A model generated the notes under the pieces. The model made no database searches, was not told the DNA's origin, and saw only the letters and a program-made list of their open reading frames with translations. A stretch of DNA of 64,000 bases from the IMG/VR virus record IMGVR_UViG_3300018915_000002. One strand, given 5' to 3'. The position numbers were made by a program, and so were the translations under genes. The stretch comes from a virus. Positions 3,347-63,181 of the stretch are shown piece by piece; positions within the stretch are counted from its first letter, which is position 1, and each line of letters begins with the position of its first letter.

Positions 3347-3961
3347 ATGACAGAAATACTCATACTTTTTGAACTAGAATGCCTCTTTCCTTTGTTCCAA
3401 AAAGATACTTTCCTCGGTGTGTTAGATACATCGGGGAAGCTCGGCATTTACTGGTCAGAGCAAGACTGGGACAAGCCTGTAGAGGAGAAATATCGGGTTC
3501 CTTGGAAGGAAATTTATTTGTTCATAATACCCGATTCGATATTCACTGTTCATGACGGAGACCCACTGAGGTTTCACTTTAAACCCAGTGTCGCGACAAG
3601 GCACTATGACAACAACTTGGTAGAAAAACTCAACATACTGGAAGGGTATTATCCAGGTCGCGTCAGAAGGAAAGGTCCTTGGGGAGAAGCTTTCATACTA
3701 GGGGACGAGAAGCCAAGAAGTCAGATTACTGAACTCGAATCCCTGCTTAAGGAGTTACGGGACAAGACCAGGGGCGATATCTTTGAGTTGCGCTACTCGC
3801 CATTCGGACGCAATCCTGGCGACTGGTACTGGATATTGATGCAGATTAAATATCCCAATCGCCCAGAAGCGGTTCATGGAAGCATTGCGAACAATCCGAT
3901 TGATTGCGTGAAGCAAGCGATCAAGCGGTGGGATGAACGAAGCGATGAGAATCCTTGGTAA
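3347..3961 (+). CDS. Hypothetical protein
   Basis: ORF track 3230..3961; start moved to the ATG after the AGCAAAACC leader. Confidence 0.65.
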   Translation: MTEILILFELECLFPLFQKDTFLGVLDTSGKLGIYWSEQDWDKPVEEKYRVPWKEIYLFIIPDSIFTVHDGDPLRFHFKPSVATRHYDNNLVEKLNILEGYYPGRVRRKGPWGEAFILGDEKPRSQITELESLLKELRDKTRGDIFELRYSPFGRNPGDWYWILMQIKYPNRPEAVHGSIANNPIDCVKQAIKRWDERSDENPW

Positions 3962-5792: not shown

Positions 5793-7328
5793 TTAATCTT
5801 GACGGCCCGACCCTACGGGCGGGATGTCATGCCCTCTTCCAGGCTCTCGCATTGCTGCTACAGCATCCTGGATCTTAGGCACTTCGATTAAGGCTTGTGC
5901 AGCGACCCGCTCTACCTCTGGGCAACGTCCAAAGGAGGAAGGACGAATCCTTCCAGTTGCAGGTTTCATTTCCGTTGCGGTTCTCCAAGCCGCTTGCAAG
6001 CGCAGCTCTGCACTCTGCCAGTCATAAAGTAACTGACTCACTTGGAGAACGAACGTGTCGGGTTCTATATGTTTTGCAAGAAATGCCGAATATAAGTCTC
6101 TTTGAGCCACTATTCCACACTCACATCGGTGGATACGCTCAGAGAGCTTTTTCTTTTTGACCCGACCACACTGGCAAGTCTGCGATAGCTTTGTGCTGTA
6201 CGTCGGAATTTCTACTACTTGCAAGCCAGCTCTTTCAGCCTTGCTTTTTAGGTGAGAGACGAACATTCCTGGCGCACGCTTACCAACAGATCTGCCGAAT
6301 AACTTTTGGAATGCTTTGTAACTAAGTTTCTCTAATTTGATGACATTTCCGTTTCTAAGGATGTCATTGACTATCCCCCCATGCAAGCTCTTGCGATGAG
6401 CAGCCAACTTCCGCTCTAGATTAGCCTTGCAGTTCCTGATTTCGGTATAGCTTCTAGAGTTATCCCATGTCTTCTTCCCTCTCTTGACCGTACCATTGGC
6501 ATTGTAATTATTGAGATTGTTGGCTCTACGAGATCTATCCATCCGACGCTGGAGCCTGCGGATTTGCTTATCCTGGAACTCCAGTTCAGAAGCAAACTCT
6601 TTGAGTTGAGTAATCGAGTCTCCAACAATAGCTATAGTACTTGGTCCTAGATCTAGACCAATATCACCATTTCCAGCTCGGTTCTTTGGCTTAACAAAAG
6701 GCTTTCCTTCACAAGTTAGCTGGACATAGAACCTGTTGCGCCCTGACACTTTCCGCCTAACCAAGCGCACGAACTTAACCTTGGAGTTGAGTCCATGCAG
6801 AATGACTGGATCATGGGAAGTGATCAAGGCTTTTAGCTTAAGCCCACTCCACTCAACACCTTCTCCTTTCCAGCGGATACCACACTTATTGTCTTTCCCC
6901 TCCGCCGAGTCCATTTGATTCTTCCCCTTGAAGCGAACCTTCTTGGCTTTCCCGAATAGAACTTTCTCGGCTGCGTGATAAGCGCGAGTAGCTAGCTTCT
7001 GTGTGGTATTAGAGTCAATATGACTACCCAACCAAGATTGTCTTAAAGGGGTGCTATAGGAATGAATGGCGTATTCAGAAAAATCGTACCGTTCTCTTGC
7101 TCGTTTGAACAGAACTTTTCGTTCTGGATTGCTGGGCTTAAGGGAACGAGCTTTATTGAAGTCCTTGGATTGGCGAATGAGTCTAATCCGACGCATCGCT
7201 TCCCCAAGGCAGGCGTTGTATATCTGCCGTGCTGCTTCTAGTCGAGATAGCAAAACACCCTCATCGCGAGGAGATACCTTAAGAGGTAGCTCACAAACGA
7301 ATGAGGGTGTAGAGGACTTTTTAGCCAC
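5793..7328 (-). CDS. tnpB: RNA-guided endonuclease TnpB
   Basis: RuvC I (IGLDLG), RuvC II (IKLEKL), zinc finger (CQCG...CECG) and RuvC III (QRDLYSA). Confidence 0.93.
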   Translation of the reverse strand: MAKKSSTPSFVCELPLKVSPRDEGVLLSRLEAARQIYNACLGEAMRRIRLIRQSKDFNKARSLKPSNPERKVLFKRARERYDFSEYAIHSYSTPLRQSWLGSHIDSNTTQKLATRAYHAAEKVLFGKAKKVRFKGKNQMDSAEGKDNKCGIRWKGEGVEWSGLKLKALITSHDPVILHGLNSKVKFVRLVRRKVSGRNRFYVQLTCEGKPFVKPKNRAGNGDIGLDLGPSTIAIVGDSITQLKEFASELEFQDKQIRRLQRRMDRSRRANNLNNYNANGTVKRGKKTWDNSRSYTEIRNCKANLERKLAAHRKSLHGGIVNDILRNGNVIKLEKLSYKAFQKLFGRSVGKRAPGMFVSHLKSKAERAGLQVVEIPTYSTKLSQTCQCGRVKKKKLSERIHRCECGIVAQRDLYSAFLAKHIEPDTFVLQVSQLLYDWQSAELRLQAAWRTATEMKPATGRIRPSSFGRCPEVERVAAQALIEVPKIQDAVAAMREPGRGHDIPPVGSGRQD

Positions 7329-12100: not shown

Positions 12101-12511
12101 TTGAAGATTATTTCAGATTTCTCTATATTTAGTTTGCCGTTACGTCTATTGTTTATGAAAAATGCAGAACTAGAGGAAAAAACGATTCCTATTTATAAAT
12201 TAACAATCCGATGGGGTGTAGGACACGATGCAGTTATTTTCCAAGAATTCTTCGACAACATCCCCCCCAATTCAGCAAAGCTAAGGGAATTGATTTATAT
12301 TCGGTCACAGATAATGGGAGGATCAGAAGTAGCAGAAAAAGTAGTATATTGCCTTGAGAATATTGTGGGGATTGATGTCATCATCAAGAAATTTCCTGAG
12401 AGTGGGGGAGCAACTCAGTTTTTGTGGCATGAACCTGAGACAGGGAATTTTCTAGGAAGTATTCAGTTAACAAAGCTGCTTGTCATTAAGACCAAAAGTT
12501 ATCAGGATTAA
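12101..12511 (+). CDS. Hypothetical protein
   Basis: 136-aa ORF ending at a bidirectional terminator; start uncertain. Confidence 0.5.
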   Translation: MKIISDFSIFSLPLRLLFMKNAELEEKTIPIYKLTIRWGVGHDAVIFQEFFDNIPPNSAKLRELIYIRSQIMGGSEVAEKVVYCLENIVGIDVIIKKFPESGGATQFLWHEPETGNFLGSIQLTKLLVIKTKSYQD

Positions 12512-12533
12512 AGTCCTAGCATTAGGCTCCATA

Positions 12534-12579
12534 AAAGCAAAAACGCCCACTCTCCATTGAGAATGAGCGTTTTTGCTTT
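12534..12579. terminator. Bidirectional intrinsic terminator
   Basis: aaagcaaaaacgcccactctc-cattga-gaatgagcgtttttgcttt stem with A/T tails on both sides. Confidence 0.8.
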
Positions 12580-13204
12580 CTTGCTAGTCCGACGAATATG
12601 TTCCCGTGCCTCAGTGGTGAGGCTCCAGGGTTTGATACCTGGAATCCACGAATTTAATTGCAAGTGTTTAAATTCTTAAAGGTTCGGTCTGGATTGCTTC
12701 CTGCCCTCGATCTAAAATTTGGAAGCCTTCTGTCATCGAGGGGAATCGGACTTGCTCTTTTACCTCCCTAGTAAGGCTGCAAACCTGAAGTGACGAATAA
12801 CCTGCCGACATCTTCCACTGCCCCTCACTTCTGGGACAGGTGCCGCACTCATCATCGCAAACGCAGTCTGCGAACGCCTACCATTACGCGACTTCTCGCT
12901 GTCTGGTTTCTAGGCTGACAGCAGCCCTATCGCTCTGTCGTCTAAATATTGTTAAATATCTGAAGTCTGTTTGAATTCGTACCCCTGCCGTAGGATGCGG
13001 CATTTAAGTTTTTCACGCTCTCAAGGGGCTTTCCCGCCTGATAGTACCCGACATTACTCGCTGGTGACGGTTTACGAGTGGACAACTCGACAATCTTCTG
13101 ACTTCACTTCCGCCAACTTTGGGGTTGATTCCCCTATGTCCAGTTGATGACCTGTGGATGTGCAACACAGGCTTACACGCGGAGTAGACTCTACATCGTT
13201 TGCT
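12580..13204 (-). ncRNA. Candidate large structured non-coding RNA (~620 nt)
   Basis: No ORF of 60 aa or more on either strand. Consensus promoter at 13211-13219 points into it and a terminator at 12534-12579 closes it. At least nine hairpins visible. Confidence 0.5.
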
Positions 13205-13453
13205 CTCTCAATTGTAACATATTATACATTAAGTATAATTTTGCAACCGTTTGTGTTGACGATCGGCGCGACAAACAACGCAAGGAACTCCTACTGCACT
13301 AAAAGTGCCATCCTTCTCAACCTGTATATGCCGTCGAACAGGATGGGCAGGGATACTGGCTTTTTCGTCAAATCTGCAATTGATTGCGTACTACAGATAA
13401 GCGGAGTGGCTTATTCAAAGTCCTATCCCTATATGTTATCACAAATGCACTCA

Positions 13454-13954
13454 CTAGAGCAAGTATTGGGCAGGCATCTCAGTAAAGTAAGGGAACGGTT
13501 CTCCATTGAGCGTGACGTTATCCCTGAACGTCTTCAAGCCCTGATCGTAGGCGGCTCCAGTGTATGCCCAGTAACCGAATGACAGGACGTTTATTGCCTG
13601 ACTAATATCGTCATCCGTCCCAAATCCAATATTGATTGTTATGTCATTTCTGTATATATTCTGGGGTTCCAGTTCAACCGCCAATGTCGAGATACCTATC
13701 TTGGCGGCTCGATTCCACTCTAGAATCTCCTGTCGAGCATGATACTGGAAGTACTTGGCTGTGCGGTCTGTTAGGGCGACGAAGAGCTTTGGAGCAAGAC
13801 CCATTGTTGGGTGAATTGGCGATCGCCCGTAATCGAGCAACAGCAGGTGCAATATTCGGCTTGCAACTACTGCGGCTGGGCGGCGAACAATATTCATCTG
13901 CCCTTGGGCGTTGTGGGGGCAAAACCATGTCCAATCGTTGCCAAGTGAACTCAC
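13454..13954 (-). CDS. Baseplate wedge protein, GPW/gp25-like
   Basis: SRILHLLLLDYGRSPIHPTMG resembles the gp25 signature (xSIxxILxTxxGERxxxPxFG); size is appropriate. Confidence 0.6.
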   Translation of the reverse strand: MSSLGNDWTWFCPHNAQGQMNIVRRPAAVVASRILHLLLLDYGRSPIHPTMGLAPKLFVALTDRTAKYFQYHARQEILEWNRAAKIGISTLAVELEPQNIYRNDITINIGFGTDDDISQAINVLSFGYWAYTGAAYDQGLKTFRDNVTLNGEPFPYFTEMPAQYLL

Positions 13955-41821: not shown

Positions 41822-42176
41822 GATTTTGCTTATTGTAGTTAAACTCCACTGTTTTTATTATAACAAAATAACAAATTGCAAAGTCCTACAACTGACGCTA
41901 TAAAACAAAATAGCCCTCAGTGAAATCCATCACTGAGGGCTGTTATTTGAAGCTTCTTTTTAAAATCTGCGGCGTTGTTCTCTACTTTGGTTAAGACCTA
42001 TTGGACTGTTTACGGTATTCCGTAAATCTACATCCCTGCAACAAGGCTGGACACATCGCGGCAGACTTTTTCTTTATACAAACATTGTAACACTAAATTG
42101 AAGCAATGTGTGTAAAAGTCTTGTATTATGACGTATTTAAGGTCATAATAGTATTGTAACAGATATTTTACAAACA

Positions 42177-55160: not shown

Positions 55161-56495
55161 GAGATTCGCTGGGAAGACTGCGTACCCTCGTGGTCGCAGA
55201 TGAAAGGCGAGTCAATTGCGGTCGGTCAATCCCGACGCAATTGACTTTCCTGCCACGGCTTACCTAAAATCAAAAAAGTAGATAAATTGGTGAGTGATGG
55301 CAAATAAAGGTTATCGATTTCGGCTGTATCCAACCCCTGAGCAAGAGAAATATCTGGCTCGGTGTTTTGGGTGCAGCCGCTTTGTGTATAACCATTTTTT
55401 GCGGTTAATCACCGATGCTTACGCCGAATCCAAGAAGCACCTAAAGTATACTGACACAGCTAAGTTGCTCACTCTCCTGAAGAAAGATGAGCAATATTCT
55501 TGGCTAACAGAAGTCAACAGTCAGTCCCTACAGCAGACGCTTAAAGATTTAGAGTCTGCATTTAACCGCTTTTTCAAAAAGATAGGAAGTTTCCCTGTAT
55601 TTAAGAAGAGGCGCAATCGTCAATCATTTCGCATTCCTCAGCATTGGAGCATTACTCCCGATGCAATGCTAAAACTTCCCAAGATGCTCCCTATTAAAAT
55701 GGTGCAGCATCGGGAAATGGAAGGAACACCAAGCAGCGTTACTATCAGCAAAACACCTACGGGCAAGTATTACGCTTCCATTTTGGTGGAATATGACCAG
55801 AGAGAAGCTCCGCTTAATGGTGGAAAGACTGGCGCTGACCTGGGGCTAAAAGACTTTTTGATTACCAGCGAGGGTAAAAAGTATCCAAATCCCAGATTCT
55901 ACAAACGTGCATTAAAGCGTTTAAAGCGGCTACAACGCTCTTTATCTCGTAAAGTCAAAGGCTCTAACAACCGTAATAAGCAACGGTTACTTGTTGCCAG
56001 AGCGCACGAGAAAGTAGCCAATCAACGGTTAGATATGCAACACAAACTCTCTCTACAGTTAACGTGCGAAAACCAAGTTGTTGCTGTGGAAGATTTGCAT
56101 ATCAAGGGGATGGTTAAAAACCATAAGCTAGCCCAAGCTATTAGCGATGCTAGCTGGGGGCAATTCTTGACAATGCTGGAGTACAAAGGGAACCTCTATG
56201 GTTGTGAAATTCGTAAGCTAGACAGGTTCTTCCCTAGTTCTAAGCGCTGCTCAAAGTGTGGATACATCCATGAGCATCTGACGCTAGATGTCAGAGAGTG
56301 GATTTGTCCAGAATGCGGCACCACTCATGACCGTGATGTCAACGCCGCAACTAACATCCTCATCTTTTCAGATCCACAAATACGGCAGGGATTGCCGGAA
56401 TCTACGCCCAAAGAGCCTGTTGAAAGACAGGGATACCAAGGGGGTTACTCCTTGGGCTTGGGAAGCTGCGTGGGCTTGTCCCCGCAGTAATTCAC
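55161..56495 (+). mobile_element. IS200/IS605-family (IS1341-like) tnpB-only element
   Basis: Left end follows TTTAT, with hairpins ctgcg...cgcag and gtcaattgcg...cgcaattgac. Right-end hairpin ctgcgtgggcttgtccccgcag is followed by TTCAC. No tnpA. Confidence 0.8.
55294..56490 (+). CDS. tnpB: RNA-guided endonuclease TnpB
   Basis: N-terminal HTH (YRFRLYPTPEQ...FGCSRFVYN), RuvC GADLGLK, VEDLHIKGM, zinc finger CSKCG...CPECG and DRDVNAATNI. Confidence 0.95.
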   Translation: MMANKGYRFRLYPTPEQEKYLARCFGCSRFVYNHFLRLITDAYAESKKHLKYTDTAKLLTLLKKDEQYSWLTEVNSQSLQQTLKDLESAFNRFFKKIGSFPVFKKRRNRQSFRIPQHWSITPDAMLKLPKMLPIKMVQHREMEGTPSSVTISKTPTGKYYASILVEYDQREAPLNGGKTGADLGLKDFLITSEGKKYPNPRFYKRALKRLKRLQRSLSRKVKGSNNRNKQRLLVARAHEKVANQRLDMQHKLSLQLTCENQVVAVEDLHIKGMVKNHKLAQAISDASWGQFLTMLEYKGNLYGCEIRKLDRFFPSSKRCSKCGYIHEHLTLDVREWICPECGTTHDRDVNAATNILIFSDPQIRQGLPESTPKEPVERQGYQGGYSLGLGSCVGLSPQ

Positions 56496-59112: not shown

Positions 59113-59766
59113 TTAAAATACTGGGTAACTTGTTACAATTTTATCATTTTTTAAGCAAACACGCAACCTTACGCCCTCGTGAACACCTTCCACAAACTGG
59201 CGATCGCCATATCCCAGTACCTTATTATTCTGAACAACATCCTCAATTGCATCCATGATTTTGTCGTTGTTCCACCTTTCTGGAAACAAGGTTTTACGGT
59301 TCTCTGGAATACGACCATCCGGATAAGCTTTCATCGCCCCTGGAGGTAGTTCAATTTCCATCACTCCATTCTTCTGCTTGCGGAGGACATCATATTCATA
59401 GCCATAAATATTACAGAACGTGTCAGCCGCCTGCTTGGTGTGCATCCCGCCTCGTAGCTGGTTGTTTTCAATATCACCCTGAAATATATGTTTAATATTG
59501 ACTGGGTAGCCTGCGACACTTGTTTTCGTCGTTGGTCTCTTCACGGGTTTATTCGACGAGCTGGGGGAAGGGGTTTCGGCTAATTGTTGATTGGGTTTGA
59601 CGGGTTTCTGAAAAGCTTTATTGGCAGATTCTGAGACGGGAGAGGCAAACCTACCACCTTCTCGATAAACGGTTTGGGTCTCTTTCAGCCACTTGGCGGT
59701 ATAGGCAGTGGCAGCTAGTTGAAGAGTGTGAAGTTGGGCTAGGGCAACCTGGTAGGGGTCAAACAT
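59113..59766 (-). CDS. Leader-family effector C: bacterial EndoU ribonuclease toxin domain
   Basis: KHIFQGD...GGMH (two catalytic His), KTLFPERWNNDKIMDAI and C-terminal GVRLRVCLKNDKIVTSYP. Start moved to MFDPY. Confidence 0.85.
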   Translation of the reverse strand: MFDPYQVALAQLHTLQLAATAYTAKWLKETQTVYREGGRFASPVSESANKAFQKPVKPNQQLAETPSPSSSNKPVKRPTTKTSVAGYPVNIKHIFQGDIENNQLRGGMHTKQAADTFCNIYGYEYDVLRKQKNGVMEIELPPGAMKAYPDGRIPENRKTLFPERWNNDKIMDAIEDVVQNNKVLGYGDRQFVEGVHEGVRLRVCLKNDKIVTSYPVF

Positions 59767-59793
59767 ATTGGTCACGGAGTTCCGTGGTAGTGA

Positions 59794-63064: not shown

Positions 63065-63181
63065 CCGCCACGGAGTTCCGTGGTCAACAAAAACAAAAAA
63101 ACAATCCAAAAGGGGTAGACTAAGGTCAATCTTAAAAAAGGTCTTCAGCCGCTCACGTAACCCGTGGGCGGCTTTTTGCGT

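Follow-up and report, generated by a model that had tools for sequence, protein, structure and literature searches.

To our knowledge, ROOL and GOLLD are large phage RNAs whose shapes are known but whose job is not. GOLLD consists of a conserved 3' and a variable 5' region that are folded as separate domains, and the cages of both ROOL and GOLLD are joined by self-kissing loops (bioRxiv 10.1101/2024.12.08.627333). In this study, we analysed a stretch of 64,000 nt of viral DNA (IMG/VR record IMGVR_UViG_3300018915_000002; the window), for which a sequence-only reading had proposed a single structured non-coding RNA of about 620 nt on the minus strand at 12580-13204 (the flagged unit), either a member of the ROOL/GOLLD kind or a new class. 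The Rfam search which that reading suggested returned no match to ROOL, GOLLD, OLE, HEARO, introns, RNase P or tmRNA, nor to 6S RNA. RF03087 (ROOL) was not matched at E<10 (a true ROOL control scored 260.6 bits), and pairwise scores against ROOL were inside the shuffle range. The universal 3'-region of GOLLD (RF02032) was likewise not matched at E<10, the positive controls of the comparison being ROOL, 6S and group I, not GOLLD. RNase P RNA, tmRNA, OLE and HEARO were matched neither in Rfam nor by ARAGORN, and for group II intron domain V there was no Rfam match and a simple motif search was empty. ARAGORN detected 0 tRNAs in the 64-kb window, thus a ROOL/GOLLD-like tRNA island does not exist there. 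Since no ROOL or GOLLD model was matched, the flagged RNA is not filed under either; the proposal stands in so far as no known family was matched, but the results do not support placing the RNA in ROOL or GOLLD. C/D-box sRNAs gave weak matches (E 0.25-6) well under the gathering scores. Words resembling those of ROOL, RNase P, SRP and group I introns were rejected, as they stood in the wrong order or were no more frequent than chance allows.

The window DNA originates from biocrust metagenomes. Proteins of the window are borne by a 242,772-bp contig, relatives measure about 245 kb, and the tape-measure gene starts at 63164. The nearest matches of a DndD-like protein are from Coleofasciculaceae, Stenomitos and Microcoleus (53-60%), and NblA was weakly matched in one distant relative. 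We infer from these sequences that the source is a jumbo phage whose host is probably a filamentous cyanobacterium. A protein-pattern search of IMG/VR did not find the phage group. TnpB/IS605-family genes are present at 5793-7328 (minus strand), with a Cas12f1-like TNB domain, and at 55294-56490 (plus strand).

The non-coding gap and its expression signals

The flagged unit had been described as the largest ORF-free stretch of the window. This is correct, except that the gap extends over 942 nt (12512-13453), of which 625 had been covered. The consensus promoter pointing into the unit was recovered; its 9-mer occurs 22 times in the window versus 0.39 expected, and behind 18 of the 22 copies an ORF (ATG/GTG start, ≥70 aa) begins 8-50 nt downstream, the copy in front of the flagged unit being without one (Table 1). 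Also in agreement, the leader motif (29 copies in the window with ≤1 mismatch vs 0.44 expected) is absent from the unit, no ORF of at least 60 aa lies inside it (the longest, 58 aa, is on the plus strand), and a terminator hairpin closes it. This terminator is probably bidirectional; the convergent gene at the edge of the gap has a 68% identical homolog on another 245-kb contig. Transcription by the host RNA polymerase from the predicted start is highly probable. Every frame of the unit holds 7-11 stops, codon scores are below those of all 67 genes, and neither Pfam nor PHROG was matched. The concern that the region is a decayed protein gene thus met no coding signal, and the flagged unit is non-coding. 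A chimeric assembly can be discounted: contigs of other runs span the two internal junctions, and 12738-13185 recurs without difference in a second study.

Two further sites of the window were recorded. A second promoter-to-terminator unit without an ORF, at 42085-41912 (minus strand) with consensus promoters at 42161 and 42092, holds a candidate small RNA of about 130 nt with a long end-to-end helix, followed by a terminator hairpin (41941-41912); its comparison with Rfam gave nothing beyond terminator-driven noise. At 59131-59139 (plus strand), a consensus promoter lies antisense to the gene at 59113-59775 and has no ORF behind it.

Table 1. Features of the locus in the window, and the corresponding layouts in relatives (L numbers denote relatives).
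Feature	Position	Strand	Remark
Convergent 118-aa protein gene, edge of gap	12155-12511	+	Gene-like codon score
Intrinsic terminator hairpin, 22 bp	12533-12580	-	Type recurs behind other genes
Tail word, candidate second pseudoknot with loop L5 (12664-12660)	12580-12584	-	Kept in both lineages
Module C, 167 nt	12586-12752	-	Homolog in L014/L159
Module C closing helix P1	12752-12746/12592-12586	-	Followed by P2 and a five-way junction (P3, P4/P5, P6, P7)
Module C candidate pseudoknot, 6 bp	12726-12721/12701-12696	-	Pairs in both phages
Direct repeat, 7 nt, second copy	12752-12758	-	5' edge of module C
5' segment (446 nt) without ORF	12759-13204	-	Many alternative helices; candidate structure
Direct repeat AGAGCAA (7 nt), first copy	13200-13206	-	Flanks 5' segment
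Extended -10 promoter, phage consensus	13211-13219	-	Predicted start ~13204
Module A, ~185-nt RNA	13240-13426	-	Covariation; outside the coordinates of the sequence-only reading
Module A promoter, extended -10 (TG-n-TAACAT)	13433-13441	-	Site common to 6/6 lineages
Anchor gene, 166 aa, conserved	13454-13954	-	Served to fetch L003, L005, L011, L014, L329
Module A in relatives	L003 10524-10713; L005 1267-1446; L011 3362-3555; L014 601-838; L329 10524-10710		
Layout of L329			A, terminator
Layout of L005 and L011			A, 55-70-nt hairpin, terminator
Layout of L014/L159			A, hairpin, module C, terminator
Layout of L003			A, gene
Layout of window			A, second promoter, 446-nt 5' segment, C, terminator

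Modules A and C and the 5' segment

The flagged RNA has a folding z of -6.6 with the terminator, -2.7 without it and -2.0 for the 5' 445 nt; the value of -6.6 is owed mostly to the terminator. Sense strands of genes of the same phage gave -2.55 +/- 2.14 at equal lengths (8 shuffles each), therefore the 5' stems are within background. All stems that had been listed for this RNA are in the sequence, and those of the 3' part are backed by a homolog, but those of the 5' part do not exceed background. In ROOL, a long helix pairs the 5' with the 3' end, with a nested P1-P19 architecture; among the strong helices of the flagged RNA there is no end-to-end helix, the 5' part being judged from a single sequence. 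Hence, of the proposed ~620-nt RNA, its non-coding, structured and phage-borne nature is retained, while comparative support is restricted to the 3' 167 nt (module C). As one relative has these 167 nt but not the 446 nt of the 5' part, the flagged unit is a modular unit and not one demonstrated 620-nt fold.

In that relative (L014), homology to the window reaches from the first base of the module C closing helix to the terminator, and all eight helices (P1-P7 and the 6-bp pseudoknot) form in both phages. Changes affect 2/98 paired versus 19/69 unpaired positions (Fisher p=9e-7), in a comparison of two independent lineages with a pairing scheme drawn with both sequences in view; the two paired changes are a single compensatory pair, C-G to U-A. 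All indels (+9, +1, -2, -3) are in loops and no frame is kept. This pattern of substitutions shows that module C is under structure-preserving selection, and the module is very probably functional. Its stems are 98% identical to those of L014, the adjacent protein gene 72% at the DNA level, and recent recombination may account for part of this stem similarity. A module C model found no credible match in 151 cyanobacterial genomes. Besides the two candidate pseudoknots, a third pair of complementary loop words was noticed (12686 with 12596). Loop-word pairs of 6, 5 and 4 bp occur in both phages, and shuffled unpaired bases equalled this set in 135/3000 trials, giving the predicted complementarity of the loop words modest support. 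Loop L5 contains the palindromic, self-complementary UGCA, which could be a contact between two molecules; we regard this only as a lead.

Module A lies upstream of the flagged unit and was found in 6/6 close lineages, with two-sided changes at 14/33 predicted consensus pairs. A model trained on five lineages without L329 (R2) finds L329 at 92.8 bits. Directly behind the stop codon, a TG-n-TAnnnT site is present at the same place in 6/6 lineages. The GCAAYC loop word and its 3'-end complement GGUUG(C/U) are also kept in 6/6, a candidate pseudoknot, so that module A is probably pseudoknotted. The covariation shows structure-preserving selection on module A, which is by this measure a new RNA family in its own right; no Rfam match was obtained for it. 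As 6S RNA, module A was rejected, there being no RF00013 match and dissimilarity to three cyanobacterial 6S RNAs (z ≤1.4). Three weak matches of the module A model (22-25 bits) were apparently due to chance around the HIP1 palindrome, and in the more distant relatives L013, L174 and L175 the stretches examined held no module A. In L329, the DNA of module A carries an erroneous call of a 70-aa ORF, placed on the opposite strand. Since no terminator separates module A from the flagged unit in the window, a read-through transcript of about 900 nt is also possible.

The 5' segment has numerous competing helices, of which few local ones are well determined. Homologs were found neither in INPHARED phages, plasmids and 401 genomes of the cyanobacterial phylum nor in one MAG with a distant relative, nor, by nhmmer, in 457 fetched loci; when IMG/VR, JGI metagenomes and GTDB were scanned by pattern, any matches were attributable to chance. 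Structural selection on this segment is conceivable, the odds lying somewhat against it, and the 446-nt 5' extension, the largest part of the flagged RNA, is unproven. Eleven bases of the promoter end in front of it (13214-13204) recur identically in L011, in the 3' arm of the hairpin behind module A (3588-3640), which suggests a common origin of promoter and hairpin.

The anchor gene has no match in Pfam or PHROG and is baseplate-wedge-like in our own reading only; its protein is 77-83% identical in the five other close lineages. Behind it, the six lineages display five layouts (Table 1), and L011-type contigs skip the flagged unit entirely. Occupancy of this site thus varies between lineages. 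The relatives were read within ≤10 kb per side of the anchor gene, therefore modules may sit elsewhere in those genomes. In L005, about 300 nt more of non-coding DNA follow the terminator (1550-1878), with HIP1 palindromes and the repeated 14-bp palindrome of the window.

A proposed hot-spot of exchangeable RNA modules and its alternatives

The best explanation, to which we assign a probability of roughly 0.5, is that the locus is a non-coding RNA hot-spot of ~245-kb soil-crust cyanophages, whose modules can be swapped and would serve in trans as decoys or scaffolds. The order would be structural gene, core RNA (module A), swappable modules and terminator. The flagged unit would be an accessory RNA cassette, which uses the promoter and terminator type of neighbouring accessory genes but whose product is RNA. 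Its working core would be module C, a self-folding five-way junction with pseudoknots that possibly dimerizes through the self-complementary UGCA of L5, and the 5' segment would be a lineage-specific addition. The A-rich linkers may allow the modules to fold, or to be cut out, separately. In this view the RNA would bind a host protein, e.g., a defence nuclease or an RNA-binding protein, as a non-essential trans-acting decoy or scaffold, a role which is proposed from the accessory behaviour and which we consider somewhat less likely than not.

Alternatively, the flagged unit might be one integral, ornate RNA of about 625 nt, GOLLD/ROOL-like with conserved 3' and variable 5' parts and assembling into an RNA-only multimer or cage, L014 then having a truncated or alternative version. 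A single promoter and terminator enclose the 625 nt, the described GOLLD likewise has a conserved 3' and a variable 5' region in separate domains (bioRxiv 10.1101/2024.12.08.627333), and the z of -2.0 on the minus strand compares with -0.1 on the plus strand. However, this z is in the range of protein genes and the 5' segment is without homolog. A possible 10-bp helix might close the 5' segment, and a 9-bp complement connects 13135-13127 with 12747-12739. The closing helix, however, carries a penalty of 8 kcal/mol in the fold model, and by our estimate a sequence of 625 nt would contain about 0.7 perfect complements of 9 bp by chance. Given also the lack of any ROOL or GOLLD score in Rfam and of tRNAs in the 64 kb, we consider the integral RNA unlikely. 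A bolder version, also improbable, is that cyanophages have here provided their first large self-assembling RNA, as a third class of such phage RNAs. The transcript of 625 nt would then fold in full length, around a module C that is an exchangeable core of assembly and is able to work by itself, and module A would be a second new family, core to the jumbo-phage group. If this were true, the natural short and long versions would permit a direct test of domain roles.

It is similarly doubtful that foreign or selfish DNA makes up the 5' segment, i.e., a decayed mobile element or captured fragment that arrived with a 7-bp duplication at the start of a stand-alone RNA gene of about 170 nt. The direct repeat exactly flanks the segment. 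When the segment is deleted in silico, module C comes to lie 3 nt behind the predicted start, and the 13 nt upstream of C match L014 at 8/13 positions, versus 4/13 at the present junction. Repeats and linker match together suggest either that a short, independent RNA gene received an insertion or that there was a repeat-to-repeat deletion in the ancestor of L014. This inference is weak, since the 7-nt word is common in the window (26 copies); it resembles the leader motif and may be a linker signal or chance. Furthermore, the segment lacks terminal inverted repeats, is present only once in the window and has no match among cyanobacterial genomes, plasmids and phages. An insertion is compatible with a real module C.

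A ribozyme is far less probable, be it a degenerate group I intron in the 5' segment or, in module C, a ribozyme of a new kind that cleaves itself or serves in processing. Compact junctions with nested pseudoknots are typical of small ribozymes, and module C is predicted to be such a junction; group I-like words also occur, including a P7-like pair at 12969/12894. Yet the group I core descriptor fires in 59/60 shuffles as well, a profile built from 8 genuine group I introns of cyanobacteria gave no match at E<10, RF00028 recovers 9 cyanobacterial introns above cut-off but not the 5' segment, and there is neither exon context nor a match to any Rfam ribozyme. Least probable of all is a decayed protein gene or small-peptide mRNA: one minus frame reaches -0.05 (1.4 SD above the off-frame background) and ATG ORFs of 22-47 aa are present, but this frame scores below all 67 genes, and the stops, the missing leader, the lack of Pfam/PHROG matches and the frame-breaking indels of module C speak against it.

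Comparison with described RNAs

With GOLLD (RF02032), the flagged unit shares that it is phage-borne, is of unassigned function and has a conserved 3' and a variable 5' part, a likeness of layout only and not of sequence or model. It differs in size and setting: GOLLD is often >800 nt with a model of 416 positions, whereas here the unit has 625 nt, the shared domain 167 nt, and the window no tRNA island. ROOL (RF03087) is similar in length (574-position model), phage-borne, non-essential and pseudoknotted; however, in ROOL the 5' part is intertwined with the 3' part, whereas module C has its own closing helix and occurs alone. OLE, HEARO/omega-RNA and raiA motif RNA also possess multi-helix junctions with pseudoknots in 200-600 nt, but none is matched in Rfam, and no OapA, IscB/IsrB or raiA was recognised beside the flagged RNA; the HNH gene lying 1.2 kb upstream (88 aa) is of the small, stand-alone type. 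Module A resembles 6S RNA (RF00013) in its ~185 nt, own promoter and cyanobacterial setting, but its consensus fold is branched and 6S is rod-shaped.

Module C is small (167 nt) and thus suits probing, cleavage assays and structure work, with natural forms that have or lack the 446-nt extension. As judged from sequence comparison, modules A and C are two structured phage RNA motifs, new with respect to Rfam, within a known kind, the phage non-coding RNAs of unassigned function. In summary, the locus adds two structured RNAs without Rfam match from uncultured soil-crust cyanophages, which are gained and lost modularly among close relatives.
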